Source: Nemertoderma westbladi (Eukaryota; Animalia; Xenacoelomorpha). Taken from it: DNA of 64,000 nt. The stretch covers positions 62,001-126,000 of the forward strand of contig JAUCBJ010009100.1 of the NCBI GenBank assembly GCA_032718475.1, in the 5' to 3' direction. Below are positions 24,881-62,362 of the stretch, one piece after another. The notes under the pieces were generated by a model. The model was not told where the DNA came from. It saw only the letters and a program-made list of their open reading frames with translations, and ran no database searches. Positions within the stretch are counted from its first letter, which is position 1. Every line of letters begins with the position of its first letter. The position numbers were made by a program, and so were the translations under genes.

Positions 24881-25433
24881 CCACAACAAAGATTTCCCAA
24901 AGAAGATGATTGAATGTAGTTGGAAATGATGAAAAGACTCAGACAACTCTACTATAAACCGAATGATGACGCGTATGCTGATGAAAATGTAATGATGCGC
25001 ACCCTGGTGCTGCGCTTATAACAATGATGATAGCCGGGGGGCTATAACCCCAATGATGGTGTGGAAATAAACAAAATTGAGAATAAATGGTGGAACTAAA
25101 TGTGTTGAAATGTGTTGAAATAAATGAAATGAGATGAAATAATAAAGAGAAATGAAAAAAGACAAAAAAAAGTCTAAGTATAAAAAGTCTAAAGAAAAGA
25201 ATTGGAAAAAAGAAAAGGACAAAAAAGTCATAAAAAACTGGTTGGATATTAATGTATAGCTATAGTAACTGTAAATGCTGAATGTATTAGCAATAAGATG
25301 ATAGATGTCTATATAGCAATGTTATTAATAAACTGAACTAAAAATAAACTGAATTATTCTGCAATCGCTATAGTTTCAGACTTTCTGGACTTATAATTAA
25401 CTGATCTAATTTGTAACGGATATAATCGTAAAT

Positions 25434-28033
25434 ATGGACCCAAATCGCCAAATTATCGGCGAATTACGTAACACGATAGATCTACTGGAATATTCGCAAC
25501 CCGGATCCCCTGACTTTGATACCAATTGGAGCACCCTGCTAAATGAGAACGTGCGAGTCGTTAAATTCACCGGGCGAGAGGGACTGGATTCCAAGAATCT
25601 ACAAGCCCTCCGGTTAGCCGATGCTAGTACGAGACTGAAAAGAACTCGGAACGCAAAGGCAACCGGAGGGGACGAGTCGTCGTTTTGGGAAACATTCCGA
25701 CAAAGCGTCTACAAATCCCAATGTTTGATCTACGACAACGAGGGAAACGCGACACCCACCTCGAAAGCGATTATGTTGGCGAGATGTCAAAGTTTCGTCG
25801 ACGACAAGAGTACATACCTCGCCCACTGGGGAAACCTGTCGGAGTGTACGGCGACGCTTCGAGAGGAACGCATATCGATTATCCAGAACCGCGACGACTA
25901 CCAGGATAAGTACGGGGCGAAAGAATATGGTCGATCCTTAGTCGTCGTCCTCGGAACCCTGGACGGTTTGGTACTGGTGTGCCGAATATTCCCGACACCC
26001 AGACAGGAAGTGCAGGCAGCCGGAGCGATCTGGTTGCTACCTCCAGAAATCCAAAAGATCCTCTTCGACTTCGACGTCATTAAAATCGGGTCGGATATCA
26101 AGGCGGACGTCCGGAACGACTACGCGAACGCTCCTCTAGGAAGAAACCGACGAGACGACCTCAACGCCCTTAGCCATTGCGTCGACACCCAAACGCTATT
26201 AGCCTGGTTACGATTCGCCGAGTTCATGCGAGGTTTCCGAGAGGTGAGACCGACGAAATCTGGTATCGGCTACCTCGCTGTGCTGAACGGTGGCATCGAC
26301 TTCAAACCCCAGAAATTTCGGGATTATAATAAATTATATGGTGGATACCCGGAATTAGAAATAAAGAGCGAGAGAGAGGGTAGATGGAAAGACGTTGACC
26401 GGAAGTGGACGATACACCAAAGGTGGGAGAATCCCGATCGACGGAACTATATCTACGTCGTTATGGAGTGCTACACCGTCGCTAAGTTTATCTGTAAGAC
26501 TCTCGATAACATCATCACGGCGGTTCCCCTTTCCTTCATCGACTACAACTGGAACGAGGTTATAAACCACACGTTCAAAGCGGTCGAGAACATTACACCG
26601 GGAGAATCGAAAACGCCCGCCGTTATCGATTCCTGGGACGAGAGCGGACCTTACGACATCCCTACGATTACCGATCTTCTCGGTGTGGAGGAGCCTCTGA
26701 TTTCCTCGGAAGGGGAAGAAATATGGCTACAGGAGGGCTTTCTATTACACACCCCGAAGCGACAACTCGAGCCGGGAGCCGCGTACGGACCGGCCGCCAA
26801 ATGGGTTGCCTCGGCCGAACCGATGACGAGAGCAGGTGCTTACACCCCACTCGGCTCCGGTAGCCCTGCGAGGGAGGTAGCCACTACCTCCGCGTTGAGC
26901 GACTTCGGCGACATATGCCAACGGTTATCCCCGTATCCTTTCCCGTGGGCAAAGACTGGTCGTCGGAGATTCCGAGTACCAGCAACCAACGGACCCGCTC
27001 AGCGATACTGGTCGAGAAGGGTCCCAGCGATGCGCCGACCCCCGACGATCTCCTCGGTATCCCTCCGTCGAAAACCCCGGCACCTCTTCGCCGACCAGCG
27101 GTGGCTACTACACCCTCCGTTCCTCAGGACCCTATGCGACTAACCCGTTGGTACGCCGAGCAAACTGAATGGATCCACCGCCAGAAACGGTCGTCTGAGT
27201 TGAGACCAGCGGGACACAAAGAAGGTTATCGTAGCGAGGACCTACTACGCAAAAGCCTAGCATTCCACGGGCTACCGGCCACCGCGAATATTCAGAAGAG
27301 CGACCGACGACTCGAATATTACGTCGGCATCCCGATTCCGATATTCCCCGGTCGAGAGATGCAATTGGAGGTTTGCGGCAACTGCGGTTCGGAGCAGTGC
27401 CCACGCGGTAAAAGGAATCGGGTTACCGATTCGTGCCTCCAGCTCATCGGGATACTCTATTGCCCACACTGTGCGACATCGGGCCACGACGTTTCCGTCT
27501 GTCCGATCCTATACAACCTCTGCACCACGTGCGGTTTCCGTGGGCATTCCTCTAGCCCCCGCTGCTATATCAAATGTCCCACTAAAGACGTTACCGCTAT
27601 GGGAAATTTGGTTATGTTCGAAACCTATGCGAACAACCACGTGAAGACTAAAGTGAGGAGAAACGCTCGGAATATTGCGCAGGAGATGGCGTGCGGGTAT
27701 TTCTCCTTCCCGGAATGCCTCCCCACGTCGGCCACGCTACCTTTCCATTACGTGGATCTGCTACTGAGTGCCGGATTATTCGGACCTTTCGAAGTCATTA
27801 GACGATTATACTCGTATAAAGAGGAGTTCAGTGACGGAGAGTGGTTCCTAGAGGCACGCAAGTCCGAGTTGGAAAGACGAACCGACATGATCCCGATGCC
27901 ATCGAAAGGAAGAGCCCCCAGGAGACAAGCCGAAGCGTTGCTCACGATGGATGTTGACGCTCCTCTACCAGCCATAGCGATCGATGAGAGTCGACGGGCG
28001 AAGAGACGAAAGGCGTATCAGAGAAAGAAATAG
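25434..28033 (+). pseudogene. Extra ORF3 of copy 1: DEDDy 3'-5' exonuclease-like domain plus CCHC zinc knuckles, frameshifted near 26945
   Basis: Track ORFs 25434-27143 and 26915-28033 join into the protein that is continuous in copy 2. Motifs IYDNE, LPPEIQKILFDFDVIKIGSDIKAD, W..P....Y.Y...E, CPHC...GH....C and CTTC...GH.....C. Confidence 0.8.
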
Positions 28034-28213
28034 TGGACCGGGATATTCCAGGAACATTAAAATGAACATTTATTTTTATACACATATATATCTATAAACT
28101 CTAGGCCAAATTAATTATGACTATGCAATATTAAATTTGGGTTTTTTATATTGGGAATGACCTACGCAAACTCAATCTACCGATAGACCTCACGAAGGTC
28201 ATTGGGGGGGGAC

Positions 28214-29778
28214 TGTTCGCGGTATTTCAACTTTTCATAATGCGAGTTGAATATTTTTTGTATTTATTTAAAATTGTTTATTCCGATATTATTACTGGGT
28301 GCGGGACCATGGGTTTTGGGCACATTCAATAAACTGGGGGCGATTTATGGGCGAACTTTGGGGCAACTTACAGGGTACGGGAATAATTTCATAGTTATAA
28401 GGGCCAGGGGTGGGAGGCAAAGTTAAGCAGTATTCAGGTTAGGATTTGGTAATGCGCCAGGACTAAAGGACAAGGACTGCCCTTAGCGGTCCCTGGCCAA
28501 CAGCAGTTATTACGAGACTGAAAAGAACTCGGAACGCTGACTGCTTGTGTCAGGGATTCGCGATGGGAAACGACAGCCCCCTTAGCTAAGCCGTACTGGT
28601 TCTCGATGACCGATCCCTTCGGGGTTCGCGAGGGGTGGGACGGACATGCGAAAGGGTGGCTGACTAACGACTGCCCCCTGAGCTAAGCCGTACTGGTTCT
28701 CGATGACCGATCCCTTCGGGGTTCGCGAGGGGTGGGACGGACATGCGAAAGGGCTGGCCAAGACGGGTTTGACGAGGACTGCCCTTAGCGGTCTCTGGTC
28801 AACGGCAGCTATTACGAGACTGAAAAGAACTCGGAACGCTGACTGCTTGTGTCAGGGATTCGCGACGGGCAATGACAGCCCCCTTACCTAAGCCGTACTG
28901 GTTCTCGATGACCGATCCCTTCGGGGTTCGCGAGGGGTGGGACGGACATGCGAAAGGGCGGCCGACTTACAGAGGAAGGGTTTGACGAGGACTGCCCTTA
29001 GCAGTCTCTGGTCAACAGCAGTTATTACGAGCCTGAAAAGGACATCGGAACGCCGGCTGCTTGTACCAGGGATTTGCGACAGGAACCGACGACAGACCCC
29101 TGAGCTAAGCCGTACTGGTTCTCGATGATCGTTCCCTTTGGGGTTCGTGAGGGGTGGGACGGACATGCGACGGGGTCGAAAGACAAAGGACTGGACGCTA
29201 CTGGCCTACCGACTGTTCGGAGCAGTTTCTCGGCTGCCGAAGCGACTACGAGCCTGAATAAGGACTCGGAAAGCCTAGGTGGTCGGGTCTCTGCGATGAA
29301 CTGACGGACCCTTAGCTAAGCCGTACTGGTTCTCGATGATCGAACCCTTCGGGGTTCGGGAGGGGTGGGACGGATGCGCGAACGGGTCCACCAACACGAC
29401 AGACTCCTAGCCAAGCCGTGCTGGTTCTCGATGATCGATCCCTTCGGGGTTCGGGAGGGGTGGAACGGACACGCGACAGGGTCGACCGACACCGACACTA
29501 CGGCACTAAGACCAGGACTGGGGAACATTAGGTAGGCTAAAATCTGGGGAACATTGGGTAGGCTAAAATCTGAGCGAACAGTGGGTAATTAAATAATATA
29601 CTGTAGGGACTTATATTGTCGTGTATAATTATTGTGAATATTTGGTGTATATTGATTTGGGGAAGCCCAAAATTATTCTCAATCAGGTTTCAACTGTAGG
29701 AAGTTACATTAAAGAGTATATCCAACCAATGCGACTTTTCCTCAACCGCAATCCTGCATTTAAGAAATTCCTCCTTCT
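28214..29778 (+). repeat. 3' LTR of copy 1 (type B), truncated; array at 28479-29482, order B A A B A B A C A A
   Basis: Follows the PPT. Near-identical to the reverse complement of the 5' LTR of copy 2. Breaks at TTCCTCCTTCT|AATTAG. Confidence 0.95.
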
Positions 29779-45813: not shown

Positions 45814-46976
45814 GATCATCGAGAACCAGCACGGCTTGGCTAAGGGTCGGTCCAGTCGGTAGACTCTGTCGCGTATCCGTACCACCCCTCTCGAACCCCG
45901 AAGGGATCGGTCATCGAGAACCAGTACGGCTTGGCTAGGAGTCTGTCGTGTCGGTGGACCCGTTCACGTGTCTGTTCCACCCCTCACGAACCCCGAAGGG
46001 TTCGATCATCGAGAACCAGAACGGCTTGGCTAGGGGTCCGTCGGTTCATCACAGAAACCCAACCACCTAGGCTTTCCGAGTCCCTTTCAGGCTCGTAGTC
46101 ACTTCGGCAGCCGAGAAACTGCTCCGAACAGTCGGTAGGCCAGTAGAGTCTAGTCGAGTCTAGTCCTTTGTCTTTCGACCCCATCGCGTGTCCGTTCCAC
46201 CCCTCACGAACCCCGAAGGGAACGATCATCGAGAACCAGTACGGCTTGGCTAAGGGGTCTGTCGTCGGTTCCCGTCACAGATCCCGGTACAAGCAGTCAG
46301 CGTTCCGAGTTCTTTTCAGTCTCGTAGTAGCTGCCGTTGACCAGAGACCGCTAAGGGCAGTCCTCGTCAAACCCGTCCTGTGGCCAGCCCTTTCGCATGT
46401 CCGTCCCACCCCTCGCGAACCCCGAAGGGATCGGTCATCGAGAACCAGTACGGCTTAGCTCAGGGGGCAGTCGTTAGTTGGCCACCCGTTCGCGTGTCCG
46501 CTCCACCCCTCACGAACCCCGAAGGGTTCGATCATCGAGAACCAGAACGGCTTGGCTACTAAGGGGCCGTCGTTTCCCGTCGCAAATCCCTGACACAAGC
46601 AGTCAGCGTTCCGAGTTCTTTTCAGTCTCGTAATAACTGCTGTTGGCCAGGGACCGCTAAGGGCAGTCCTTGTCCTTTAGGCCTGGCGCATTACCAAATC
46701 CACCCCTACAGGCAGCAGGAAGTTGGCCAGGGCCTAATAGTACTCAGGCTAACCTGAATACTGCTTGCATTTTCCATCCCCCCTGGCCCTTATAACTATG
46801 AAATTATTCCCGTACCCTGTAAGTCGCCCCAAAGTTCGCCCATAAATCGCCCCCAGTTTATTGAGTGTGCCCAAAACCCATGGTCCCGCACCCAGTAGTA
46901 ATATCGGAATAATCAATTTTAAATAAAATACAAAAATATTCAACTCGCGTTATGGAAAGTTGAAATACCGCGAACA
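45814..46976 (-). repeat. 3' LTR of copy 2 (type A), truncated within the last hairpin module
   Basis: Near-identical to the reverse complement of 15169-16332. Confidence 0.95.
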
Positions 46977-47141
46977 GTCCCCCCCAATGACCTTCGTGAA
47001 GTCTGTCGGTCGATTGAGTTTGCGTAGGTCATTCCCAATATAAAAAACCCAAATTTAATATTGCATAGTTTTTAATTAATTTGGCCTAGAGTTTGTATAA
47101 AAATAAATGTTCGATAAATGTTCCTGGAATATCCCGATCCA

Positions 47142-49703
47142 CTATTTCTTTCTCTGATACGCCTTTCGTCTCTTCGCCCGTCGACTCTCATCGATCGCTA
47201 TGGCTGGTAGAGGAGCGTCAACATCCATCGTGAGTAACGCTTCGGCTTGTCTCCTGGCGGCTCTTCCTTTCGAAGGCATAGGGATCATGTCGGTTCGTCT
47301 TTCCAACTCAGATTTGCGTGCCTCTAGGAACCACTCTCCGTCACAGAACTCCTCTTTATACGAGTATAATCGTCTAATGACTTCAAATGGACCGAATAAT
47401 CCGGCGCTCAGTAGCAGATCCACGTAATGGAAAGGTAGCGTGGCCGACGTGTGGAGGCGTTCCGGGAAGGAGAAATACCCGCACGCCATCTCCTGCGCGA
47501 TATTCCGAGCGTTTCTCCGAACCTTGGTCTTTAAGTGGCTGTTTGCGTATGTTTCAAACATGACCATATTTCCCATAGCGGTAACGTCTTTGGTTGGACA
47601 TTTGATATAGCAGCGGGGGCTAGAGGAATGTCCACGGAAACCGCACGTGGTGCAGAGGTTATATAGGATCGGACAGACGGAAACGTTGTGGCCCGAAGTC
47701 GCGCAGTATGGGCAATAGAGTATCCCGAGGAGCTGGAGGCATGAATCGGTAACCCGATTCCTTCTGCCGCGTGGGCACTGCTCCGAGCCGCAGTTGCCGC
47801 AATCTTCCAATTGCATCTCTCGACCGGGGAATATCGGAATCGGGCAGCCGACGTAGTATTCGAGTCGTCGGTCGCTCTTCGGAATATTCTCGGTGGTCGG
47901 TAGCCCGCGGAATGCTAGGCTTTTGCGTAGTAGGTTCTCGCTCCGATAACCTTCTTTGTGTCCCGCTGGTCTCAACTCGGATGACCGTTTCTGGCGGTGG
48001 ATCCATTCAGTTTGCTCGGCGTACCAACGGGTTAGTCGCATAGGGTCCTGAGGAACGGCGGGTGTAGTAGCCACCGCTGGTCGGCGAAGAGGTGCCGGGG
48101 TTTTAGACGGAGGGATACCGAGGAGATCGTCGGGGGTCGGCGCATCGCTGGGGCCCTCCTCGACCAGTATCGCTGAGCGGGTCCGTTGGTGGCTGGTACT
48201 CGGAATCTCCGACGACCAATCTTCGCCACCCGGGAAAGGATACGGGGATAACCGTTGGCATATGTTGCCGAAGTCGCTCAATGCAGCTGTAGTGGCTACC
48301 TCCCTCGCGGGGCTACCGGAGCCGCGTGGGGTGTAAACGCCTGCTCTCTTCATCGGTTCGGCCGAGGCAACCCGTTTGGCGGCCGGTCCATACGCGGCCT
48401 CCGGCTCGAGTTGTCGCTTCGGGGTGGAGAGTAGAACACCCTCGTTTAGCCATATCTCTTCCCCTTCCGAAGAGATCAGAGGCTCCTCCGCACCGAGAAG
48501 TTCGGTAATCGTAGGGATGTCATAAGGTCCGCTCTCGTCCCAGGAATCGATAACGGCGAGCGTTTTAGTCTCTCCCGGTGCGATGTTCTCGACCGCTTTG
48601 AACGCGTGGTGTATGACCTCGTTCCAGTCGTAGTCGACGAAGGAAAGGGGGACCGCCGTAATAAGGTTATCGAGAGTTCTACAGATAAACTTAGCGACGG
48701 TGTAGCATTCCATAACGACGTAAACGTAGTTCCGTCGATCGGGATTCTCCCATCTTTGGTGTATCGTCCACTTCCGATCAACGTCCTTCCATCGACCCTC
48801 TCGCTCGCTCTTTATTTCTAATCCCGGGTATCCACCGTATATTTTATTATAGTCCCGGAATTTCTGGGGTTTGAAGTCGATACCGCCGTTTAGCACAGCG
48901 AGGTAGCCGATCCCGGATTTCGTCGGTCTCACCTCTTGGAATCCTCGCATGAACTCGGCGAATCGTAACCAGGCTAGTAGCGTTTGAGTGTCGATGCAAT
49001 GGCTAAGGGCGTTGAGGTCGTCTCGTCGGTTTCTTCCTGCAGGGGCGTTCGGGTAGTCGTTCCGGACGTCAGCCTTGATATCCGACCCGATTTTAATGAC
49101 GTCGAAGTCGAAGAGGATCTTTTGGATTTCCGGAGGCAGCAACCAGATCGCTCCGGCTGCCTGCACTTCCTGTCTGGGTGTCGGGAATATTCGGCACACC
49201 AGTACCAAACCGTCCAGGGTTCCGAGGACGACGACTAAGGATCGACCGTATTCTTTCGCCCCGTACTTTTCCTGGTAGTCGTCTCGGTTCTGGATAATCG
49301 ATACGCGTTCCTCTCGAAGCGTCGCCGTACACTCCGACAGGTTTCCCCAGTGGGCGAGGTACGTACTCTTGTTGTCGACGAAACTTTGACATCTCGCCAA
49401 CGTAATCGCTTTCGAGGTGGGCGTCGCGTTTCCCTCGTTGTCGTAGATCAAACATCGGGATCTGTAGACGCTCTGCCAGAACGTTTCCCAAAACGACGAA
49501 TCGTCCCCTCCGGTTGCCTTTGCGTTCCGAGTTCTTTTCAGTCTCGTACTAGCATCGGCTAACTGGAGGGCTCGTAGATTCTTAGAATCCGGTCCCTCTC
49601 GCCCGGTGAATTTAATGACTCGCACGTTCTCATTTAGCAGGGTGCTCCAATTTGTATCAAAGTCAGGGGATCCGGGTTGCGAATATTCCAGTAGATCTAT
49701 CAT
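47142..49703 (-). CDS. ORF3, downstream duplicate (853 aa, lacks the first 13 aa): DEDDy exonuclease-like domain plus zinc knuckles
   Basis: Uninterrupted ORF. IYDNE, KIGSDIKAD and YVVME motifs, CxxC..GH..C knuckles, basic C-terminus RRAKRRKAYQRKK. Confidence 0.85.
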   Translation of the reverse strand: MIDLLEYSQPGSPDFDTNWSTLLNENVRVIKFTGREGPDSKNLRALQLADASTRLKRTRNAKATGGDDSSFWETFWQSVYRSRCLIYDNEGNATPTSKAITLARCQSFVDNKSTYLAHWGNLSECTATLREERVSIIQNRDDYQEKYGAKEYGRSLVVVLGTLDGLVLVCRIFPTPRQEVQAAGAIWLLPPEIQKILFDFDVIKIGSDIKADVRNDYPNAPAGRNRRDDLNALSHCIDTQTLLAWLRFAEFMRGFQEVRPTKSGIGYLAVLNGGIDFKPQKFRDYNKIYGGYPGLEIKSEREGRWKDVDRKWTIHQRWENPDRRNYVYVVMECYTVAKFICRTLDNLITAVPLSFVDYDWNEVIHHAFKAVENIAPGETKTLAVIDSWDESGPYDIPTITELLGAEEPLISSEGEEIWLNEGVLLSTPKRQLEPEAAYGPAAKRVASAEPMKRAGVYTPRGSGSPAREVATTAALSDFGNICQRLSPYPFPGGEDWSSEIPSTSHQRTRSAILVEEGPSDAPTPDDLLGIPPSKTPAPLRRPAVATTPAVPQDPMRLTRWYAEQTEWIHRQKRSSELRPAGHKEGYRSENLLRKSLAFRGLPTTENIPKSDRRLEYYVGCPIPIFPGREMQLEDCGNCGSEQCPRGRRNRVTDSCLQLLGILYCPYCATSGHNVSVCPILYNLCTTCGFRGHSSSPRCYIKCPTKDVTAMGNMVMFETYANSHLKTKVRRNARNIAQEMACGYFSFPERLHTSATLPFHYVDLLLSAGLFGPFEVIRRLYSYKEEFCDGEWFLEARKSELERRTDMIPMPSKGRAARRQAEALLTMDVDAPLPAIAIDESRRAKRRKAYQRKK

Positions 49704-49704
49704 G

Positions 49705-52143
49705 TTACGTAATTCGCCGTGCCTCTAGGAACCACTCTCCATCACAGAACTCCTCTTTATACGAGTATAATCGTCTAATGACTTCAAATGGACCGAATAA
49801 TCCGGCGCTCAGTAGCAGATCCACGTAATGGAAAGGTAGCGTGGCCGACGTGTGGAGGCGTTCCGGGAAGGAGAAATACCCGCACGCCATCTCCTGCGCG
49901 ATATTCCGAGCGTTTCTCCGAACCTTGGTCTTTAAGTGGCTGTTTGCGTATGTTTCAAACATGACCATATTTCCCATAGCGGTAACGTCTTTGGTTGGAC
50001 ATTTGATATAGCAGCGGGGGCTAGAGGAATGTCCACGGAAACCGCACGTGGTGCAGAGGTTATATAGGATCGGACAGACGGAAACGTTGTGGCCCGAAGT
50101 CGCGCAGTATGGGCAATAGAGTATCCCGAGGAGCTGGAGGCATGAATCGGTAACCCGATTCCTTCTGCCGCGTGGGCACTGCTCCGAGCCGCAGTTGCCG
50201 CAATCTTCCAATTGCATCTCTCGACCGGGGAATATCGGAATCGGGCAGCCGACGTAGTATTCGAGTCGTCGGTCGCTCTTCGGAATATTCTCGGTGGTCG
50301 GTAGCCCGCGGAATGCTAGGCTTTTGCGTAGTAGGTTCTCGCTCCGATAACCTTCTTTGTGTCCCGCTGGTCTCAACTCGGATGACCGTTTCTGGCGGTG
50401 GATCCATTCAGTTTGCTCGGCGTACCAACGGGTTAGTCGCATAGGGTCCTGAGGAACGGCGGGTGTAGTAGCCACCGCTGGTCGGCGAAGAGGTGCCGGG
50501 GTTTTAGACGGAGGGATACCGAGGAGATCGTCGGGGGTCAGCGCATCGCTGGGGCCCTCCTCGACCAGTATCGCTGAGCGGGTCCGTTGGTGGCTGGTAC
50601 TCGGAATCTCCGACGACCAATCTTCGCCACCCGGGAAAGGATACGGGGATAACCGTTGGCATATGTTGCCGAAGTCGCTCAATGCAGCTGTAGTGGCTAC
50701 CTCCCTCGCGGGGCTACCGGAGCCGCGTGGGGTGTAAACGCCTGCTCTCTTCATCGGTTCGGCCGAGGCAACCCGTTTGGCGGCCGGTCCATACGCGGCC
50801 TCCGGCTCGAGTTGTCGCTTCGGGGTGGAGAGTAGAACACCCTCGTTTAGCCATATCTCTTCCCCTTCCGAAGAGATCAGAGGCTCCTCCGCACCGAGAA
50901 GTTCGGTAATCGTAGGGATGTCATAAGGTCCGCTCTCGTCCCAGGAATCGATAACGGCGAGCGTTTTAGTCTCTCCCGGTGCGATGTTCTCGACCGCTTT
51001 GAACGCGTGGTGTATGACCTCGTTCCAGTCGTAGTCGACGAAGGAAAGGGGGACCGCCGTAATAAGGTTATCGAGAGTTCTACAGATAAACTTAGCGACG
51101 GTGTAGCATTCCATAACGACGTAAACGTAGTTCCGTCGATCGGGATTCTCCCATCTTTGGTGTATCGTCCACTTCCGATCAACGTCCTTCCATCGACCCT
51201 CTCGCTCGCTCTTTATTTCTAATCCCGGGTATCCACCGTATATTTTATTATAGTCCCGGAATTTCTGGGGTTTGAAGTCGATACCGCCGTTTAGCACAGC
51301 GAGGTAGCCGATCCCGGATTTCGTCGGTCTCACCTCTTGGAATCCTCGCATGAACTCGGCGAATCGTAACCAGGCTAGTAGCGTTTGAGTGTCGATGCAA
51401 TGGCTAAGGGCGTTGAGGTCGTCTCGTCGGTTTCTTCCTGCAGGGGCGTTCGGGTAGTCGTTCCGGACGTCAGCCTTGATATCCGACCCGATTTTAATGA
51501 CGTCGAAGTCGAAGAGGATCTTTTGGATTTCCGGAGGCAGCAACCAGATCGCTCCGGCTGCCTGCACTTCCTGTCTGGGTGTCGGGAATATTCGGCACAC
51601 CAGTACCAAACCGTCCAGGGTTCCGAGGACGACGACTAAGGATCGACCGTATTCTTTCGCCCCGTACTTTTCCTGGTAGTCGTCTCGGTTCTGGATAATC
51701 GATACGCGTTCCTCTCGAAGCGTCGCCGTACACTCCGACAGGTTTCCCCAGTGGGCGAGGTACGTACTCTTGTTGTCGACGAAACTTTGACATCTCGCCA
51801 ACGTAATCGCTTTCGAGGTGGGCGTCGCGTTTCCCTCGTTGTCGTAGATCAAACATCGGGATCTGTAGACGCTCTGCCAGAACGTTTCCCAAAACGACGA
51901 ATCGTCCCCTCCGGTTGCCTTTGCGTTCCGAGTTCTTTTCAGTCTCGTACTAGCATCGGCTAACCGGAGGGCTCGTAGATTCTTAGAATCCGGTCCCTCT
52001 CGCCCGGTGAATTTAATGACTCGCACGTTCTCATTTAGCAGGGTGCTCCAATTTGTATCAAAGTCAGGGGATCCGGGTTGCGAATATTCCAGTAGATCTA
52101 TCATGTTACGTAATTCGCCGATAATTTGGCGATTTGGGTCCAT
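49705..52143 (-). CDS. ORF3, upstream duplicate (812 aa, C-terminally truncated by the duplication junction)
   Basis: Native start MDPNRQ. Nearly identical to 47142-49703 with a 2401-bp period. Confidence 0.85.
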   Translation of the reverse strand: MDPNRQIIGELRNMIDLLEYSQPGSPDFDTNWSTLLNENVRVIKFTGREGPDSKNLRALRLADASTRLKRTRNAKATGGDDSSFWETFWQSVYRSRCLIYDNEGNATPTSKAITLARCQSFVDNKSTYLAHWGNLSECTATLREERVSIIQNRDDYQEKYGAKEYGRSLVVVLGTLDGLVLVCRIFPTPRQEVQAAGAIWLLPPEIQKILFDFDVIKIGSDIKADVRNDYPNAPAGRNRRDDLNALSHCIDTQTLLAWLRFAEFMRGFQEVRPTKSGIGYLAVLNGGIDFKPQKFRDYNKIYGGYPGLEIKSEREGRWKDVDRKWTIHQRWENPDRRNYVYVVMECYTVAKFICRTLDNLITAVPLSFVDYDWNEVIHHAFKAVENIAPGETKTLAVIDSWDESGPYDIPTITELLGAEEPLISSEGEEIWLNEGVLLSTPKRQLEPEAAYGPAAKRVASAEPMKRAGVYTPRGSGSPAREVATTAALSDFGNICQRLSPYPFPGGEDWSSEIPSTSHQRTRSAILVEEGPSDALTPDDLLGIPPSKTPAPLRRPAVATTPAVPQDPMRLTRWYAEQTEWIHRQKRSSELRPAGHKEGYRSENLLRKSLAFRGLPTTENIPKSDRRLEYYVGCPIPIFPGREMQLEDCGNCGSEQCPRGRRNRVTDSCLQLLGILYCPYCATSGHNVSVCPILYNLCTTCGFRGHSSSPRCYIKCPTKDVTAMGNMVMFETYANSHLKTKVRRNARNIAQEMACGYFSFPERLHTSATLPFHYVDLLLSAGLFGPFEVIRRLYSYKEEFCDGEWFLEARRIT

Positions 52144-52689
52144 ATTTACGATTATATCCGTTACAAATTAGATCAGTTAATTATAAGTCCAGAAAGTCTG
52201 AAACTATAGCGATAGCAGAATAATTCAGTTTTTTATTTAATTCAGTTTATTAATAACATTGCTATATAGGCATCTATCATCTTATTGCTAATACATTCAG
52301 CATTTACAGTTACTATAACTATATATTAATATCCAACCAGTTTTTTATGTCTTTTTTGTCCTTTCTTTTTTCCAATTCTTTTCTTTAGACCTTTTTTTAC
52401 CTTTTTTTTTGTCTTTTTTCATTTCATTATTATTTCATCTCATTTCATTTATTTCCACATATTTCAACATTTAGTTCCACCATTTATTTCACATTTATTT
52501 ATTTCCACATCATCATTGGGTTTATAGCCCCCTGGCTATCATCATTTGTTATAAGCGCAGCACCACGGTGCGCATCATTTCATTTTCATCATCATACGCG
52601 TCATCATTCAGGTTTATAGTAGAGTTGTCTGATCCTTTTCATCGTTTCCAACTATATTCAATCATTTTCTTTGGTTAATCTTTGTCGTG

Positions 52690-53112
52690 GAAGGGGTGTT
52701 ACGCGGCAATCTGGGATCTACAGCTGGACTCGTTACACCGCCTACGCCCCAAACTGCGCACGTAACAGACAATGAAGACGCTAGGAGTGAAGTCACGTGG
52801 ATGCACCAGGGACCCACCAGAATAACACTCCAAACAACATAAAGCTCAGTCGACGAAGTCATGTGGGATGGGGTTACGCAACATTCTGGGATCTACAGCT
52901 GGACTCGTTACACCGCCTACGCCCCAAAATCCACGTAACGGTCCCACCAGAATAACGCGACTGAGAAACATAAAACCCTCTATCGTCGAAGTCATGTGGA
53001 TGCACCATGGACCCATCAGAATAACGGGATAGAGGGGGTGTTGCGCGGCAATCCGGGATCTACAGCTGGACTCGTTACACCGCCTACGCCCCGAACTGCG
53101 CACGCAACGGAC
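52690..53112. repeat. Three ~170-bp repeats between pol and ORF3, copy 2
   Basis: GGGATCTACAGCTGGACTCGTTACACCGCCTACGCCCC x3. Confidence 0.9.
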
Positions 53113-53388
53113 AACATAACATACTGCAATGAATACAATGAATTCCACTTCAAATCTTTTCCATTTCCAATAATCCAATATCGTTGGTCCCAATGACCAA
53201 AATCAGGGTAAACAATACATAAACGACCCTGCGTCAGTCGAAACATCTGCAGGGTGATGCTGGACTCCACATAACACACGAGGAAACACAAATACCATTG
53301 TGTGGTTACAGTTGGTTTAAGGGGGGTCCATAACTCATTGTCGATAAATCACAGTTTTATAAGAGTTTGTCAACATGATGAGAAGGGT

Positions 53389-56300
53389 TTACACGGATTT
53401 GTCATTGTCACCGATGTCCACAGCAGGATCTTGAGTAGGGATCTTATCACCTCTCGTAGAATCACCGCTATCATTGCCTTCAAGAAGGCACAGCCTCTGG
53501 ATAGGGCGTTGGTAGTGGCCTGAATTCGTTCGTATTGTCACAGTCCTCGCAAGTCCGTCTTTGCTTGGGTGTATGGTCACGACCCGCGCCACAGGCCAGT
53601 GAACGCGGTCTTTGAGATCTTCTTTAACTAGTACCATGTCGCCAACTGCGACGTTCCGGTAGGTGTTGTTCCATTTCCTCCTGGTCCAGAGGGTTATGAG
53701 GTACTCCTGGGCCCAAATTCTCCACCAATGCGCTGCCAACGCTTGGGCCTTTTTCCAGTTTGTATGTTTCGCGATCTCGTTGGGATCCGGGAACATGGTT
53801 TCCGGGAGGACGTGGGTTTTGGGTCTCCCCAGTAAGTGGTTAGGAGTGAGGGGCTCCAGGTCTGTGGGGTCGTCGCGGATAGGAACAATGGGTCGGTTGT
53901 TCAGGGTAGCCGTGATCTCGCAGAATGTTGTGCGGAGGGTGTCATGGGTTACCCGGGTATCGCCTAGAGCGACGCGCATGGATCGTTTCACTAGGTCGAT
54001 CAGTTTCTCCCATACCCCGCTCATATGGGGTGCTAAGGGGGTCTGGAAGTGCCACTGTATCTGGTGTTCCTTCCAGACTTGGGATGCGGTGTTATCGGTA
54101 AACCATCCCTCGATCGCCTCTCTAAGTTCTCTTTCTCCTCCCACAAAGTTTGTACCATTATCGGAATACATGTGGCAGCATGTCCCGTTGTTCGCCACGA
54201 ACCGACGCAGAGCGTTGATGAATGCGTGTTGTGTCAGATTTACCACAATATCTAGGTAAATTGCCCTAGACCTTAGGCAGGTGAAGATGGCTCCCCAGCA
54301 TTTGATGTTGGATCGTCGTTCAATAACCGTGAACGGTCCGAAACAGTCCACTCCGGTGACGTAGAATGGTGGGGAATCCGCTTGTAGACGGGTGGCTGGT
54401 AAGTCGGCCATCTTTTGGGTGATTGGTGGCGCTAGGTAACGTCTGCAGGTGAAGCAACGTTTCAACACTTTCCGGATCAGTGGCTGGATGTGGGTGATCC
54501 AATATCTTTGTCTTATATTAGCTATAATCCAATTCTGTCCTGCGTGGTGGTTGTCCTCGTGACATTGTAGAATTAATAGCTTAGCTAGTGTCGACGTTCC
54601 GGGCAGAAGCGCCGGGTATTTAACCTCATATTCGACCGGGGCGTTTGCCATCCGGGTATTCAGTCGGATCAGTCCGTCCTCTCCCATCATTGGTCTCAGT
54701 TGGTAGACTGGGCTGTCCGGTTTCAACGTTTTGCCCGCACTAAGTTGTTCCCATTCATCGGGGAAACTTTCTTTCTGGACATATCTAACAATACACTTCT
54801 CCGCGATAATGAGTTCTTGTATATTCCGTTGAACTATCGGTTTGTTGTTTTTCCACCGTAGGAAGTTGCGAAGGGTTATAACGTGGTGGACGAGCCGTCT
54901 CATGGATGAAGTTCGCTCGATCAACCGATGTAAAGACGCCGCTAGTTGAGTGATCGTCGCGACGTTATAGTGCCTGCCCGAGTCCTTTGCAGGCTCAGTC
55001 AGACAACTATAAATTTCCACCGCGTTGCTTCGATGGATTTTACGGATCTCTTTATCGTCCTCGGAGTATTTTCCGCTATCGAGCTCGGGGTCGAATCGGG
55101 TACTCCATGTTAATTGTAGCTGCCGTAGGAATTCCGGGCCTGTAAGCCAGAGTTTACTTTTACCGAGTTGTTTTGGGGTGGCGCCTCGGCTTGATAAGTC
55201 CGCTGGGTTTTCCTTCCCGTTCACGTGATGCCACTGTTCTCGGCCGGTACACTGTTTAATCTCCGTGGCTCGGTTTGCAACAAACGTGGTGTGACGCCGT
55301 GATGGAGAGTGGAGATAATAGAGAACTATACTCGAATCTACCCAGAAGTGTTGAGATTCTATGGGGATCCGTAGATTCCGCATGACCATGCGATTCTGTC
55401 TTACTGCCCAAACTGCAGCTTGTAGCTCGAGTCTCGGAATCGTTGCTACGAATTCCCCGGATACTGTCTTTGCTTTGGAGAATAAGAAGCTTGTATCGCC
55501 GTTTCCATCGTTACTTAGTCTCCGTAAGAAGGTGACTACACCGATTCCGGTATTCGAAGCATCCGAAAAGGTGTGGAGCTGGAAGATATCGGTGGGCAGT
55601 TTATCGAGGAAGAACGGTCTAGGTATCCGCATAAGATGTAGGTGTTCGAGCTGCTCCGTCCATTTTCTCCATTTGACGCTGAGGTATGGGGGGAGCTCTT
55701 CGTCCCATCCCAGTCCTTCTATCCACATTTCCTTAATCAGGTTCATTCCGGCCAAGGTTACTGGAGATATGAAATTTAGTGGGTCGAAGATGGTGCTTTT
55801 TATCGACAAACATCACCTTTTTGTCATAGGCTTGGGTAGGGGTTTATATTTGAAGATGAATTCATCTGATTCTATGTCCCATTCAATCCCGAGTACACGA
55901 TGTTCCACATCCTCCGAATACATCTTGTTATTTTCCAGCCGGATGTCCTCCGGAAACTTTTCCATAAGTGTTTTGTCGTGGGATCTGAACTTCACGAGCG
56001 GAAACCCTCCTTTCTTTAGACATTCTACCATCCCCATTGCTAGCCGATATGCCTCATCCACATTATCCGCGCCGGCGCATCCGTCGTCCACGTAGAAGCA
56101 TCGTCGAATGGTTTCTATGACGGTTGGAGGGAACTCGTTTTCGCACATAGTTGCCATCCTCTTTAGCATGTCACTGCATGCTACCGGCGAGTCCTTAGCG
56201 CCGAAGATCCTGACGACCATACGCATTACGTCTACGTCCTTTATCGTGAGTTGGCTAATCTCCTGTTGAGTAAGCGTTTTATCCGTCCATAGGATACGTA

Positions 56301-59300
56301 GACAGTCCGAGTCTCTTGGTAACGTACGAACTTGATGAAACATGGCCTTGATGTCACAGGTGAATGCTACCCGGTTTTCCCTGAACCTGATCAATATGCC
56401 GATGAGTGTACTATATATGTTGGGTCCCGTGTAAAGCTGACTGTTTAGGGATTCGCCCTGGTACATAGCGGCAGCATCATTTACCACTCGGATTTTCCCA
56501 CCTTTGCGGGCTTCTACTACATAGTGGGTTGGGAGATAATATGTTCTTTTACCACCTTGCAGTTCATTCCGTGGTACCATTTCTGCTAATCCGTCATCGA
56601 GATATCCTTGGATTACGGTATTATATTTCTCCTTTATCTCGGGTTGGTCATTCAGTCGGCGTAGAATCCCTTTAAGTCGCCTAAGTGCCATGCTGGCGTT
56701 GTTTGCCATTGGTTTGTTTGGGTCCTTCCATAACATAGGTGAACACCAGTGTCCGTCTTTAAACGTGGCCTGGTCGAGAACGTCCATACAATATTGGTCC
56801 TCTTTGGATGGGTTTTCGTCCTTTTCCGCGAACTCCTGGGTCTCCAAATTAAAATATTTCGTCATCTCTCGTTGGGTTTTCTCGGTTTCCAGAAACAAAT
56901 CTTCGTCAAGATCCGAAGCTGAGCAATAACCCACAGAGGTTACGTTCTCTTTAATCTGACATTTAGGAAGGTAGGTATAGGTGTCCGTAGTTTCCTCCTT
57001 AATGCCGCAGAGTGTCCATCCCATTATTGTTCGTTCAGCATAAAATCCGTCATCCTGGTTTATAGATCGGGCGATATCTCCAGTGGGGATGTGTAGTTCC
57101 GGTGTATCAAGTCCGATCAGTAGGGTGATACGGTTTACGTCCAACTGCGGACACCTCAGGTCTACATCGTCTCGGTCCAATTGTATGAGGGGGGCGTACT
57201 CGGCTGATTGTCGGAACCGCACCCGGAGGTCTGTGTGTACCAAGGCGTTCTTGATGGTTAACTTAGCCGTTTCGTAGCCCTTCATCACTCCTTCCATCTG
57301 GAGTTGAACCTCCCCGGACTCTACCTCTCTGTTATCGGTGATGGTTTGTATGGGCCGTTTACAAGGTTCATATTCTAGGCCGAGTTGCTCGAGGAAATCC
57401 CGGTCGATGATGGTTCCGTCAGACCCGTTATCAAGGAACGCGAGCGTCGTCAGGGATTTGCCGACTCCCTGGATCCTTACCGGGATTACCTTTGCGAAGA
57501 CCATGTAGCGGCGATTTATAAGATTAATTGTGGCTGAAATGTTGGTTACTTGTGGTTTATCGGTGGAGATTTTAAACGGATTGGTTTCTCTCCGTTGGGT
57601 AATCCGGGTTCCTTTCGAAACGTGGTTCGTTTCTCCTCTTCGCTTTGTTTCAATCCGAAAGGGGAGGGTATTGCAGTCAAAGTTCGCGGGGATGTGGAGG
57701 AGCGTGTGATGACGTAGGTCGTTACAAACCGCACAACACGACCTTTGGTCGCAGTCCCGAACATATTGACCTGTTCCAAGACACCGGAAGCATCCTCGGT
57801 GTTTCATAATCGCTTCGAAGCGTGGGACGAGTTCGGCAAACTGGAACTTCCTGCAGAATTCAACTTTATGTTTCTCTCCACAGTAGAGACAGAGAAGGGA
57901 GTTTGTGATGCCTTCCCTCTCGGGTGCCCAATTCGCGAGATAACATGCCCATTCCTCGGCTAATGTCGGTTCCTTGTGGTCTTCGTCGTCGGAATCCTCT
58001 GCCATGGTGATGGCCATCGTACTCACTGGAGGAGGGCGGAATCTCGGTTTCTGAGTGGGTGTCTTACTCCTGGGGTTGCTCTCTATTCCGTCCAACTTGG
58101 CGAGACTCTGTTTCGAGAATATCGAATCATTCATGGCTTCGGAGATATCGTCCAGGAATGCCGACATTTCAAGGAAGCTGGGATCTCGATCCGGATGTCT
58201 GCGCCGGAGATCTACGCATTTATAGGCCCACTTACTTTGTAGCCATCCGGGGAACTTCCGGGCGATCTGTCGGAGATTTAGAATGTTGTTCACCTGGTCC
58301 TCCTTATTTAAGGGTTTCAGAGTGTAGTAGGCATCCTTCATAGAGTCGGAGAATTCCTGGATGTTCTGTGGGTCCCCTAGTGATCCTGCGTCCTGTATCA
58401 GTCTCTCCAGAGTTTTATTAATTATAGTTCCGGTATTTCCGTATCTTTTATCTAGAGTTTTCCATGCGTCGTAGTATGCCTCATGAGAACCTCCCTCAAA
58501 ACATGCGATGATTCGGCGTGGTTTGTCGCCCAGGTATTGCGATAAATATACCAGTTTCTGTGCGTCGGCTATGTCCGTTGATCCAATCTGCGCAAAGAAC
58601 CGTTTCTTGAATCTGAGGTAATCGACGGGATCTCCTTCGAAGGTGCGGATCTCCATCTTAGGCATGGAGAGGCGGTTTTCCAACGTCCGGATAATGCCGA
58701 CGTCATCTGAACTGGAATGACTCGGAGGGTTATAGTTATTGGCACTCTCTCCCATACTTGATGGATCAATGATAGGTGGAGTTTTAATGATGACACGACT
58801 ACGGGTTTGTGGTGTGGATGTAAATGGGTTGTTGGATCGGGGAGTGGCGTCCCGTTCCGAGTCCCTTTCAGGCTCGTACTTGGGTACACTCGTTGCCGTG
58901 GGGTTGGATGGGAAATACGGTTCCTCATTCTTTAGCGTAGCCAGTGGGGGATGGAACACCGGTGCTTGTGCCGATAACGTAGACTGTTTGGTAGGCGGGA
59001 TCTCGGGTTTCGGAAGTTTCGCCGCTGTTGGTATAAATGACTTTTCTAATTCCGGTACCAGGATTGGTTCATATTCCTGATCTATATCCCTTACCCAGTC
59101 CTCGTAGAGTTGAATATCTCGTTCTATAAGTGCGGCTTCGTATTCCGCGAGTTTTGCAATATCCGCATTCTTTTTGTGGATGAGAATCGCTTGGGCCTCG
59201 GCGTGTTGTTTACGCATTTCTGCTTCCCATTTACGTTGTTCGATCTCTCGTTCGGCCTCTCGTCCACATTGTTCAGCCTCCTGTTTGCGTTGTTCAGCCT

Positions 59301-60213
59301 GCCGCTCGGCCTCTCGTCTATGTTGTTCCGCCTCCTGTTCGCGTTGTTCGGCCTCCTGCTTGCGTTGTTCAGCCTGCCGTTCAGCCTCTCGTTCACGTTG
59401 TTCGGCCTCCTGCTTGCGTTGTTCAGCCTGCCGTTCGGCCTCTCGTTCACGTTGTTTAACCTCCTGTTTGCGGTGTTCGGCCTCCTGTTTGCGTTGTTCA
59501 GCCTGCTGTTCGGCCTCTCGTCTATGTTGTTCCGCCTCCTGTTCGCGTTGTTCAGCCTGCCGTTCGGCTGCTTGTTCGGCCTCTCGCTTTTGTGTTTCGG
59601 CGGCTAATACATCTTGCTCGGCTTGCAGTTGAATATCTTCCATCCGAGCTTTTAGGGCTAATGCCTTCCATTCTCGCAGTTGGTCTCGGAGTGGCGGCCC
59701 CCTTGAGAACTGCGCGCTGAGCCGGATATCTCGCTCCTAGCGCTGGAGTGCTGATTTCTAGCGGACCCCATTCTCTTTCGATGTACTGCTGTCCTGATGC
59801 TGGAGGATCGCACTGATTCCGCGTCTGTTCTTTCAGCTCTCTTGTAGTACTGTTCTTCATAGCCTCTCACAAGGCTGAGGGTCCTCCAGTGTTGTTTGCG
59901 GAACCCATCTAGATGTACAACGTGTTCTTCTAACTTGGGGTAGTTTTCTTGATCAGTGGAGGGAATTAGCTCTTGGTACGCCTGTATCATTCTTTCGTAC
60001 CGCTGTAGGATATTTCGGATACTTTGAAGCTGAGTTTGTATCTCGTTGAGGGGGGTTTTGATTCCCTTGAGTTGTTTCTCTATCCGTTGATACTACTCCG
60101 CCTTTGAGAGCCCCTAGCCGACGGGTCATGTTTTTGACGTTTGGTACCTCGTCGGCTTCCGAGTCTGTGTGGTGATCCATTTCGTCGGTATCGGATACGT
60201 TATTGGTCGTCAT
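53389..60213 (-). pseudogene. gag-pol: BEL/Pao Gag-Pol polyprotein, copy 2, with frameshifts near 60093 and 59698 and a stop at 55813-5
   Basis: Same motifs as copy 1 (LDNGS, YVDD, FSDAS, FWVDS, SDNGTNF). Track ORFs 55813-59643 and 53389-55809 are in frame across one TGA. Confidence 0.95.
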
Positions 60214-60461: not shown

Positions 60462-62362
60462 TGTTGATTAATAAAACCACGACTTCGTCTTAACTCAAAT
60501 ACCAGAGTTTCCTCGTAGTGGGTGCTGGCAAGCACGTAGAGAGTTTTGAAAAGTATTGAAGGACTCTCAACTTCCACCAGTTGAAGTTGGCCGCGTTTTA
60601 CTCTCAATTTTGACACCCTGTCAAAATTGACCGTAATTATTCTCAATTTTGTTGCCGTTATCCCTACACCAGGGAGGAAAAACGCCGATGCTGGATACGT
60701 AACTTTACAGACCACAGAGTCCCGGCCAGTCACTGGATATTGAATTTGGAGAAGGAGGAATTTCTTAAATGCAGGATTGCGGTTGAGGAAAAGTCGCATT
60801 GGTTGGATATACTCTTTAATGTAACTTCCTACAGTTGAAACCTGATTGAGAATAATTTTGGGCTTCCCAAAATCAATATACACCAAATATTCACAATAAT
60901 TATACACGACAATATAAGTCCCTACAGTATATTATTTAATTACCCACTGTTCGCTCAGATTTTAGTCTACCCAATGTTCCCCAGATTTTAGCCTACCTAA
61001 TGTTCCCCAGTCCTGGTCTTAGTGCCGTAGTGTCGGTGTCGGTCGACCCTGTCGCGTGTCCATTCCACCCCTCCCGAACCCCGAAGGGATCGATCATCGA
61101 GAACCAGCACGGCTTGGCTAGGAGTCTGTCGTGTCGGTGGACCCGTTCGCGCATCCGTCCCACCCCTCCCGAACCCCGAAGGGTTCGATCATCGAGAACC
61201 AGTACGGCTTAGCTAAGGGTCCGTCAGTTCATCGCAGAGACCCGACCACCTAGGCTTTCCGAGTCCTTATTCAGGCTCGTAGTCGCTTCGGCAGCCGAGA
61301 AACTGCTCCGAACAGTCGGTAGGCCAGTAGCATCCAGTCCTTTGTCTTTCGACCCCGTCGCATGTCCGTCCCACCCCTCACAAACCCCAAAGGGAACAAT
61401 CATCGAGAACCAGTACGGCTTAGCTCAGGGGTCTGTCGTCGGTTCCCGTCGCAAATCCCTGGTACAAGCAGCCGGCGTTCCGATGTCCTTTTCAGGCTCG
61501 TAATAACTGCTGTTGACCAGAGACCGCTAAGGGCAGTCCTCGTCAAACCCTTCCTCTGTAAGTCGGCCGCCGTTTCGCATGTCCATCCCACCCCTCGCGA
61601 ACCCCGAAGGGATCGGTCATCAAGAACCAGTACGGCTTAGGTAAGGGGGCTGTCGTTGCCCGTCGCGAATCCCTGACACAAGCAGTCAGCATTCCGAGTT
61701 CTTTTCAGTCTCGTAATAGCTGCCGTTGACCAGAGACCGCTAAGGGCAGTCCTCGTCAAACCCGTCTTGGCCAGCCCTTTCGCATGTCCGTCCCACCCCT
61801 CACAAACCCCGAAGGGATCGGTCATCGAGAACCAGTACGGCTTAGCTCAGGGGGCAGTCGTTAGTCGGCCACCCTTTCGCATGTCCGTCCCACCCCTCGC
61901 GAACCCCGAAGGGATCGGTCATCAAGAACCAGTACGGCTTAGCTAAGGGGGCTGTCGTTTCCCGTCGCGAATCCCTGACACAAGCAGTCAGCGTTCCGAG
62001 TTCTTTTCAGTCTCGTAATAACTGCTGTTGGCCAGGGACCACTAAGGGCAGTCCTTGTCCTTTAGGCCTGGCGCATTACCAAATCCACCCCTACAGGCAG
62101 CAGGAAGTTGGCCAGGGCCTAATAGTACTCAGGCTAACCTGAATACTGCTTAACTTTGCCTCCCACCCCTGGCCCTTATAACTATGAAATTATTCCCGTA
62201 CCCTGTAAGTTGCCCCAAAGTTCGCCCATAAATCGCCCCCAGTTTATTGAATGTGCCCAAAACCCATGGTCCCGCACCCAGTAATAATATCGGAATAATC
62301 AATTTTAAATAAATACAAAAAATATTCAACTCGCATTATGAAAAGTTGAAATACCGCGAACA
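60462..62362 (-). repeat. 5' LTR of copy 2 (type B) with hairpin array at ~61040-62050; inner end 60462 or 60650
   Basis: Matches 28214-29778 in reverse complement. Confidence 0.8.

Follow-up and report, generated by a model that had tools for sequence, protein, structure and literature searches.

A third gene of BEL/Pao retrotransposons in Nemertoderma westbladi is under purifying selection and is predicted to encode a DEDDy-type exonuclease with zinc knuckles

INTRODUCTION

Exonucleases of the DEDDy type have been described as products of a third open reading frame (ORF3) in bdelloid rotifer retrotransposons with long terminal repeats (LTRs), among them the Ty3/Gypsy-like clades Juno and Vesta. 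Rodriguez, Kenefick and Arkhipova (2017) found such DEDDy ORF3s in Juno, Vesta and the Terminons; according to the portions of that article available to us, the motif is DEED, activity was not tested there, and the gene has probably been exchanged among retroelements (PMC5408684). Reviews, as far as their accessible text goes, repeat this account (PMC6431247, PMC5718144, PMC6338049). The Belpaoviridae, as profiled by the ICTV, are metazoan elements of 4.2-10 kb that carry gag, pol and, in some cases, a gene resembling env (PMC8742986).

Here we analyse a stretch of 64,000 nt from Nemertoderma westbladi (contig JAUCBJ010009100.1, positions 62,001 to 126,000 of the forward strand; hereafter the window, whose numbering we use throughout). 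It holds two copies, A and B, of one LTR element of the BEL/Pao type, each with an ORF3 in the env position. A preliminary description of positions 47142..52143, made from the letters alone, had proposed that ORF3 is a captured, functional accessory gene encoding a DEDDy 3'-5' exonuclease with zinc knuckles under purifying selection. Our tentative reading, which falls somewhat short of an even expectation, is that ORF3 encodes an RNA-directed exonuclease of this type that would act for the element on its own transcript.

The resemblance to the rotifer systems is close in outline. Both have a separate ORF3 after pol that was first taken for env, and both ORF3 products are of the DEDDy type by motif, with the catalytic residues kept apart from one Asp-to-Glu change and with activity predicted (PMC5408684, text available). 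The carrier here is a BEL/Pao element, in contrast to Juno and Vesta, and the candidate motif is D-E-D-E rather than DEED. The ORF3 described here has ~870 codons, a long insertion after the ExoI motif, a Pro/Ser linker and C-terminal CCHC knuckles, whereas the accessible text reports only a Cys-His-Cys motif in the ORF3 of rotifer Vesta2/5 (PMC5408684). Purifying selection is shown here for the BEL/Pao ORF3, and the rotifer ORF3 is compared by its description only. With the Belpaoviridae the elements share LTRs, a polypurine tract, gag, the domain order protease, reverse transcriptase (RT), RNase H, integrase (PR-RT-RH-IN), Pao-specific Pfam families and a third ORF in the env position, but they differ from the family profile in their size of about 14 kb and in a third gene that is exonuclease-like rather than of the membrane type.

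RESULTS

ORF3 is a regular, selected part of a many-copy family

Both elements carry ORF3 about 1.2 kb 3' of the integrase, with the polypurine tract and 3' LTR following it, and the window contains three copies:

49705..52143, minus strand: copy B1, with ATG, exonuclease-like domain, linker and knuckles; 812 amino acids, without the basic tail
47142..49718, minus strand: copy B2, a 99.9% identical tandem duplicate without the first 8 codons but with the natural end
25434..28033, plus strand: ORF3 of element A; the linker has a 1-nt indel near 26948, while the knuckle residues and the candidate ligands are the same as in the B copies

The open minus-strand frames extend over 47142-49724 (B2) and 49705-52167 (B1). 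The region 47142-52143, which had been presented as ORF3, does contain ORF3 frames but is a tandem duplication (47317-49719 versus 49718-52120, offset 2401, 3 of 2403 nt differing) in which neither copy is whole; B1 is truncated by the duplication junction and lacks the final ~57 codons. None of 15 joints listed among 38 contig joints in public runs falls at 49718, and the duplication may be real or an assembly artefact.

ORF3 is not confined to these copies. In public DNA runs of the host, 15,909 contigs (run X1) and 7,080 contigs (run X3) align to element B and cover 30 of 30 bins, a depth that we do not take as copy number, and variants of the element range down to about 79% identity. One contig of run X4 spans the spacer into ORF3. 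Runs X4 and X2, compared with 45800-62400 and 47140-49719, contain more diverged variants of ORF3 (136 differences over 652 nt and 92 over 536 nt), and we therefore consider ORF3 to be present in older subfamilies too. Run X5, which may be of RNA, has a small share. Its presence in both elements, together with the contig coverage and variants, makes ORF3 a regular part of a many-copy family.

We estimated selection from the differences between element A and B2, the informative comparison, counted codon by codon with gapped codons skipped. The ratio of nonsynonymous to synonymous rates (dN/dS) is 0.23 over 857 codons (bootstrap 0.17-0.32); by region it is 0.14 for the exonuclease (0.07-0.25), 0.38 for the linker and 0.19 for the knuckles, and about 1 for the N-terminal 73 codons, which hold 8 changes. 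The corresponding values between elements A and B are 0.15 for gag and 0.06 for pol, while shifted and antisense control frames gave 1.08, 1.62 and 1.16 and the spacer gave 0.70. The preliminary description had noted that many differences between copies are synonymous; indeed, 90 of 159 nucleotide differences lie at third codon positions, and the 64 amino-acid changes observed compare with a mean of 108 and a minimum of 91 when 159 substitutions were simulated neutrally (0 of 2000 runs as low). Residues 76-345 (numbered as in B2 throughout) carry 14 changes against a neutral mean of 29.9, again with 0 of 2000 runs as low. By these comparisons the ORF3 family is under purifying selection that is older than the breaks in the present copies. 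What had been called a functional gene is a stable, selected part of the element family; since none of the three window copies is whole and unbroken, 'functional' applies to the family and not to these copies.

The ORF3 domain resembles PF01612 exonucleases

Only three relatives of ORF3 were found at E ≤ 0.001 among 1.84 billion representatives. These sequences (P0001, P0002 and P0003, each with ~32% identity) are singletons in ENA, from contigs of 9449, 2676 and 2199 nt. P0001 matches ORF3 pairwise in the N-terminal domain (E 5e-17) and in the knuckle domain (E 4e-11) and has the same layout, with an N-terminal domain, a low-complexity linker, a Cys cluster and two knuckles, and a conserved segment beyond. 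The relatives contain the motifs D-x-E, K-x-G...D/E, GLG, W..P and Y-x3-D/E.

We compared a family profile of four sequences (ORF3 and the three relatives) by hhalign with 66 bacterial PF01612 matches, which fall into three groups: 14 sequences that we take to be WRN-like from our own reading of their motifs, not from a tool label, 26 short RNase-D-like proteins and 26 RNase D proteins. The family profile matched the 14-member group with E 8.7e-6 and a score of 43.8, compared to 18.4±3.1 (maximum 27.6) for 100 block-shuffled profiles and 10.1 for the reversed profile; the three relatives alone gave E 1.2e-5. Its match to bacterial PF01612 proteins that are short and stand alone (E 9e-6 for the 14-member group and 3e-5, or 3.2e-5 before rounding, for the short RNase-D-like proteins) is better than that to full RNase D (E 0.015). 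Against Escherichia coli RNase D the three motifs are collinear over 165 columns (E 0.004, probability 9%); against PolA the ExoII region alone aligned. Similarly, 24 of 30 matches listed by the ESM Atlas for the ORF3 domain are PF01612 clusters (0.92), as are 30 of 30 listed for P0001 with the 'named' filter (0.93-0.94).

Each motif that had been proposed (LIYDNE, a WRN/EXD2-like ExoII, DTQ, SGIGYL and W..P....YVYVVME with its Glu) could be located in the minus-strand frames of B1 and B2. The order and character of ExoI D-x-E, ExoII K-I-G...D and ExoIII W..P...Y-x3-acid are those of the WRN, EXD2, Nibbler and Egalitarian members of PF01612; unlike WRN- and EXD2-type proteins, ORF3 falls below the Pfam threshold, has ~55 extra residues after ExoI and a Glu in ExoIII, and is fused to knuckles. 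Taken together, the profile match, the collinearity with RNase D and the Atlas matches bear out the suggestion of a DEDDy (PF01612)-like domain, and we conclude that the fold is very probably of this type.

Other searches were negative. A sequence search of PDB with the exonuclease-like domain gave no significant match; a match to DJ-1 (E 0.19) in PDB and one to Melibiase (E 0.2) in Pfam were dismissed as chance. Single-profile HMMs from the bacterial PF01612 groups gave ORF3 E 0.07-0.1 or nothing, not above controls. Word-index protein searches confirmed none of 5473 candidates, and P0001 alone among 7987 and among 1484; pattern scans of metagenome and viral contig loci confirmed 0 of 145, 0 of 145 and 0 of 34 matches, and tblastn against plasmids and phages returned nothing relevant. 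Over 301 bacterial genomes the family profile had weak matches in 12, mostly to its low-complexity linker.

A predicted active site with an insertion after ExoI

The positions of the domain are as follows:

48690..49499, minus strand: DEDDy-like domain of B2; D95 at 49440-2, E97 at 49434-6, D219 at 49068-70, Y335 at 48720-2, E339 at 48708-10
51091..51900, minus strand: DEDDy-like domain of B1; D at 51841-3, E at 51835-7, D at 51469-71, Y at 51121-3, E at 51109-11
about 51646-51834, minus strand: post-ExoI segment with the insertion, B1

LIYDNE occupies residues 92-97, the segment LPPEIQ...IKAD runs to D219, DTQ lies at D245 and SGIGY at 270-274, and W..P....YVYVVME ends at E339. In EXD2, the catalytic residues are given as D108, E110, D171, Y242 and D246 (PMC6648332, text available). 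The candidate ligands D95, E97, D219, Y335 and E339 are identical in all three copies, the E339 codon differing synonymously in element A. D219 aligns with D in P0001 and P0003, with E in P0002 and with D of the bacterial profile, and Y335-x3-E339 corresponds to Y-x3-E in P0001 and P0002 and to Y-x3-D in P0003. An ungapped 21-residue block of the relatives that ends in D-x-E found its best match among 839 windows at SFWETF...LIYDNE (z 5.9; 4.5 without the D/E columns). Placing ExoI there requires about 50-57 extra residues before the second strand relative to the relatives, so that the extra segment described earlier as ~60 residues is indeed needed, in a slightly shorter form, but the register depends on the aligner.

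Structure prediction gave models of low confidence. The predicted local distance difference test (pLDDT) score was 33 from the single sequence; from a three-row alignment it was 46, with a predicted template modelling (pTM) score of 0.49. The trims of that alignment were picked because ExoI fell at LIYDNE, so the strand-insert-strand topology of the model is not independent evidence. Foldseek with this model found no PDB match at E ≤ 0.001 (Egalitarian or EXD2 account for 11 of the 41 matches listed, all with E > 1). A second structural comparison reached at best Z 2.9 (Egalitarian 2.2, Nibbler 2.1), a wide search at best Z 3.9 for unrelated chains, and a BFVD search at best E 0.03. From the motifs and alignments we consider it probable, with considerable room for error, that D95-E97-D219-Y335-E339 form an intact active site and that ExoI is followed by a helical insertion; in an alternative register, ExoI may instead be degenerate and lie near D149.

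Several observations weigh against the exonuclease reading and its functional interpretation. Most aligner settings missed the LIYDNE register, which 8 of 48 in one set and 34 of 120 in another recovered, and the default alignment places the ExoI Asp of the relatives at D149, without a Glu at +2. In ExoIII, Glu replaces Asp, with a two-residue register shift versus the relatives. ORF3 alone matches the bacterial profile only with E 0.09; the Pfam check that the preliminary description called for gave no match, as Pfam and NCBIfam scans of ORF3 returned nothing above threshold, and the best Pfam exonuclease signal is that of P0001 (E 0.2). In the Atlas listing for ORF3, clusters without a name take the first three places, and the PF01612 row has 163 of 256 features where the usual threshold is 170. 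The selection estimate comes from one independent copy pair, and the post-ExoI segment (residues 98-160) has no selection signal, with 4 changes from 8 differences (P 0.22). Finally, no ORF3 copy in the window is whole and unbroken.

If the exonuclease likeness were spurious, or ORF3 a decaying passenger without a role, the missing Pfam and PDB matches and the broken or incomplete copies would be accounted for, and there is a parallel in rotifers, where the env and GDSL ORF3s are described in the accessible text as varying neutrally within a genome (PMC5408684). We regard this as very improbable, because dN/dS is 0.14-0.23 versus the neutral controls, the PF01612 profile match is far above the shuffles, P0001 has the same two-domain layout, and gag-pol is equally broken in these copies.

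Zinc knuckles at the C-terminus and no envelope features

The exonuclease-like domain is followed by a Pro/Ser linker and then by these features:

47610..47801 (B2) and 50011-50202 (B1), minus strand: Cys cluster and two CCHC knuckles
47145..47183, minus strand: basic C-terminal tail RRAKRRKAYQRKK, present in B2 only of the B copies

The Cys cluster, both knuckles and the basic tail described earlier are all present, but the second knuckle departs from the consensus spacing. The Cys cluster is C642/C645; knuckle 1 (C671-x2-C-x4-H-x4-C, ending at C684) matches the consensus C-x2-C-x4-H-x4-C exactly, whereas knuckle 2 (C691-x2-C-x4-H-x5-C) has x5 in place of x4. The knuckle region matches profiles of retroviral nucleocapsid (NC), with a best E of 0.002 to HIV NC, and the knuckles of P0001 do so with E 1e-4. 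The tail resembles a nuclear localization signal by its pattern only.

By its sequence, ORF3 is not an envelope gene, in agreement with the preliminary description: a search for a signal peptide and a C-terminal transmembrane (TM) anchor found an N-terminus that is not hydrophobic and a C-terminus that is basic. The further statement that there is no TM helix needs some qualification, as the sole hydrophobic window, residues 162-180, has a Kyte-Doolittle value of 2.08 and could mimic one; this hydrophobic segment includes Asp and Arg, its counterpart in the relatives is the beta2-beta3 strand-turn-strand region, and the model shows it as two strands.

Because the knuckles are NC-like, RNA is the substrate that we would propose. 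A nuclease that acts on DNA instead, proofreading or trimming the products of reverse transcription before integration, seems improbable. DEDDy enzymes such as WRN and polymerase proofreading domains also use single-stranded DNA, and the basic tail, by its pattern, would suggest nuclear entry. EXD2, too, cleaves both DNA and RNA according to the accessible text (PMC6648332). However, ORF3 is separate and lies 1.2 kb behind pol rather than forming a pol domain, and the NC-like knuckles would point to RNA.

A predicted hairpin common to the LTRs, gag and ORF3

A stretch of 27-32 nt in the 5' coding region of ORF3 matches repeats in the LTRs, and its core recurs in gag in another reading frame:

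49522..49553 (B2 ORF3), 51923-51954 (B1 ORF3) and 58855-58877 (gag), minus strand: hairpin core, found also in the LTR repeats

On the sense strand the core reads A-N-U-A / CGAG..GAAA..CUCG / GAA and is present ~3 times per LTR, with a single occurrence each in gag and in ORF3. The sites in element A (plus strand) are 15512, 15818, 16047, 18443, 25626, 28509, 28811 and 29245, and those in element B (minus strand) are 46099, 46328, 46634, 49550, 51951, 58880, 61283, 61717 and 62019; these are 17 of 28 scan matches. Within the elements, 21 matches are sense and 1 is antisense, while shuffled sequences gave a mean of 2.0 and a maximum of 5. The predicted fold is a GAAA-capped hairpin below an internal loop of the AGUA/GAA type, with a covarying outer stem (A-U/U-A/C-G and G-C/C-G; 97% of 99 cells paired), a covariation seen in related copies from which the structure itself was drawn. 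In folding, the ORF3 copies beat 200 of 200 shuffles (z -3.7 and -6.1) and the gag copies were unremarkable (z about -1). The gag and ORF3 copies have AGUA/GAA and the LTR copies AUUA or ACUA; AGUA/GAA is the sequence of the sarcin-ricin motif, and AUUA and ACUA are absent from the table in PMC1865062, in the text available. An Rfam scan of 45700-53400 had 0 matches. We consider the hairpin a candidate target of the ORF3 protein.

The hairpin gives weight to a different reading of ORF3, in which a protein of the exonuclease fold serves non-catalytically as an RNA adaptor, comparable to Egalitarian (Egl) or, in function, to Rev/Rex, that binds the repeated hairpins and so moves, exports or packages the RNA of the element. 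A sense-strand core kept in LTRs, gag and ORF3 in differing frames with a covarying outer stem, and a protein with knuckles and a basic tail, would suit such an adaptor, and the long post-ExoI insertion and the Asp-to-Glu change could inactivate the site. Moreover, the exonuclease-homology domain of Egl binds stem-loops, including the I-factor signal, with its catalytic residues unused, as described in the accessible text (PMC13186709). We judge the adaptor unlikely, as all five candidate ligands are kept in three of three copies and the acidic residues are kept in relatives at about 32% identity, Pfam found no LOTUS-like domain of the Egl kind in ORF3, and the partner of the hairpin could equally be Gag. 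More specifically, the family might be a 'complex' retrotransposon with a pair like Rev and its response element, in which the ORF3 protein recognises the bulged-G/GAAA hairpin and processes or routes element RNA, an idea that we hold to be distinctly unlikely; if it were true, P0001 would show the cassette to be a family of accessory proteins of retroelements that is old and has no name.

The carrier elements and their surroundings

Elements A and B, in opposite orientation, are 92-94% identical across gag-pol and ORF3, and are organized as follows:

15169..29500 (end approximate), plus strand: element A; LTRs from 15169 and 28214; gag-pol broken
62362 to 45814, minus strand: element B, an LTR element with gag, pol, a spacer and a tandemly duplicated ORF3
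61031..62362, minus strand: 5' LTR of element B; TG at the start, inner end presumed to be at a CA; internal ~95/205-nt repeats
55813..59736, minus strand: element B gag, with DUF1759 and three Cys/His clusters, followed by aspartyl protease and by RT with YVDD
53389..55812, minus strand: Peptidase_A17 region (presumably the end of RT and RNase H), integrase zinc domain and core, DUF5641, element B
52144..53388, minus strand: non-coding spacer between pol and ORF3, element B; ~176-nt repeats, A-rich tract
45814..46986, minus strand: G-run polypurine tract and 3' LTR, element B; outer end truncated near a 22-nt satellite

The gag of element B starts further 5' than 59736, interrupted by frameshifts and one stop, and an in-frame stop divides the frame 53389..55812 from the preceding gag-PR-RT frame; in both elements gag-pol is interrupted by stops or frameshifts. 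Pfam identified DUF1759 (E 2e-14), Peptidase_A17 (E 8e-37), Integrase_H2C2 and DUF5641 (E 1e-27), with the aspartyl protease scoring just below the cut-off; the domain order is PR-RT-RH-IN, with YVDD in the RT frame. The LTRs of both elements start TGTTCGCGG, and a G-run lies upstream of each 3' LTR. A by-eye look past the inferred LTR end for an 18-nt primer-binding site for a host tRNA saw no clear TGG start. By their LTRs, polypurine tracts and domain content and order, the elements are BEL/Pao (Belpaoviridae) LTR retrotransposons.

The LTRs (compared over 15169-16396, 28214-29493, 45814-46976 and 61031-62362) differ by about 6% within each element, but only by 0.5% between A-5' and B-3' and by 1.6% between A-3' and B-5', a cross-element similarity that suggests that copies lying in tandem or close to each other have undergone recombination or conversion. 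Synonymous divergence between A and B is uneven along pol, from 0.13 to 0.42. At 29500-29778 the 3' LTR of element A continues into sequence normally found 3' of the 5' LTR, resembling a cut-off head-to-tail tandem.

Arrays of the 22-nt satellite occupy 4590-15168, 35178-40581 and 44389-45761; element A adjoins one of these, and about 50 nt separate the end of element B from another, a closeness that may reflect targeted insertion. Upstream of gag, a conserved coding-looking stretch begins MxLFLNRNP... and later reads VEVEVQGTNVGRFRITVRVV (16611-17242, plus strand; 60212-60800, minus strand); it is spread over several frames in both elements and is possibly a further small accessory ORF. The integrase end of element A has a 126-nt triplication (23798-24176), and gag of both elements has variable coiled-coil repeats (17893-18090 and 59249-59568). 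A non-LTR element at 29928-34523 (plus strand) has two long open ORFs with a PHD/RING-like finger, an endonuclease and an RT, and other non-LTR RT fragments lie at 41035-42863 and 62810-64000.

DISCUSSION

We propose that ORF3 is a conserved accessory gene of this BEL/Pao family whose product is likely a 3'-5' exonuclease of the two-metal DEDDy type, linked to zinc knuckles, and that the protein would bind and trim the element's own RNA. More speculatively, it may act mainly on the transcript of the encoding element, for example in 3'-end trimming or in RNA clearance during particle assembly, with the repeated hairpin as a landing or stop signal. The exonuclease domain is about as constrained as gag, which suggests that the lineage encoding it is itself the one to gain, and the retention of ORF3 by selection in a family that multiplies inside one genome would be best explained if the protein acted on its own RNA.

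This last point also bears on the possibility that an active exonuclease is turned against host silencing, in that it degrades or mis-trims the small RNAs, or the triggers made of double-stranded RNA, that target the element. Related folds do occur in small-RNA pathways (mut-7, EXD1 and Maelstrom; PMC5408684, text available), an arenavirus exonuclease dampens innate signalling according to the accessible text (PMC7968707), and the host's sequencing runs contain many variants of the family. A suppressor that serves all copies, however, would be under weak selection within the genome, yet the domain has a dN/dS of 0.14 compared to 0.15 for gag, and we see this role as a minority possibility next to trimming of the element's own RNA.

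As to origin, ORF3 had been called captured; the rotifer precedent, by analogy, points to exchange among retroelements over fresh capture from the host. Our literature search, which left most subscription papers and Repbase outside its reach, turned up no BEL/Pao element for which an exonuclease ORF is reported, and the word 'exonuclease' was not found in the main text, as available, of the BEL/Pao survey PMC3118150. Since the domain is invisible to Pfam, similar ORFs may hide in many genomes, and for a third ORF in BEL/Pao, position alone is a poor ground for annotation as env.

In the sources as available, the LTR elements so far reported to have DEDDy cargo are those of bdelloid rotifers, and neither selection nor activity is shown there. 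The unbroken N-terminal domain of B1 and the candidate hairpin open the question of activity and substrate raised in 2017 to testing in vitro. The presence of a selected, knuckle-fused ORF3 in BEL/Pao suggests that different retroelement families repeatedly retain a useful 3'-5' exonuclease.

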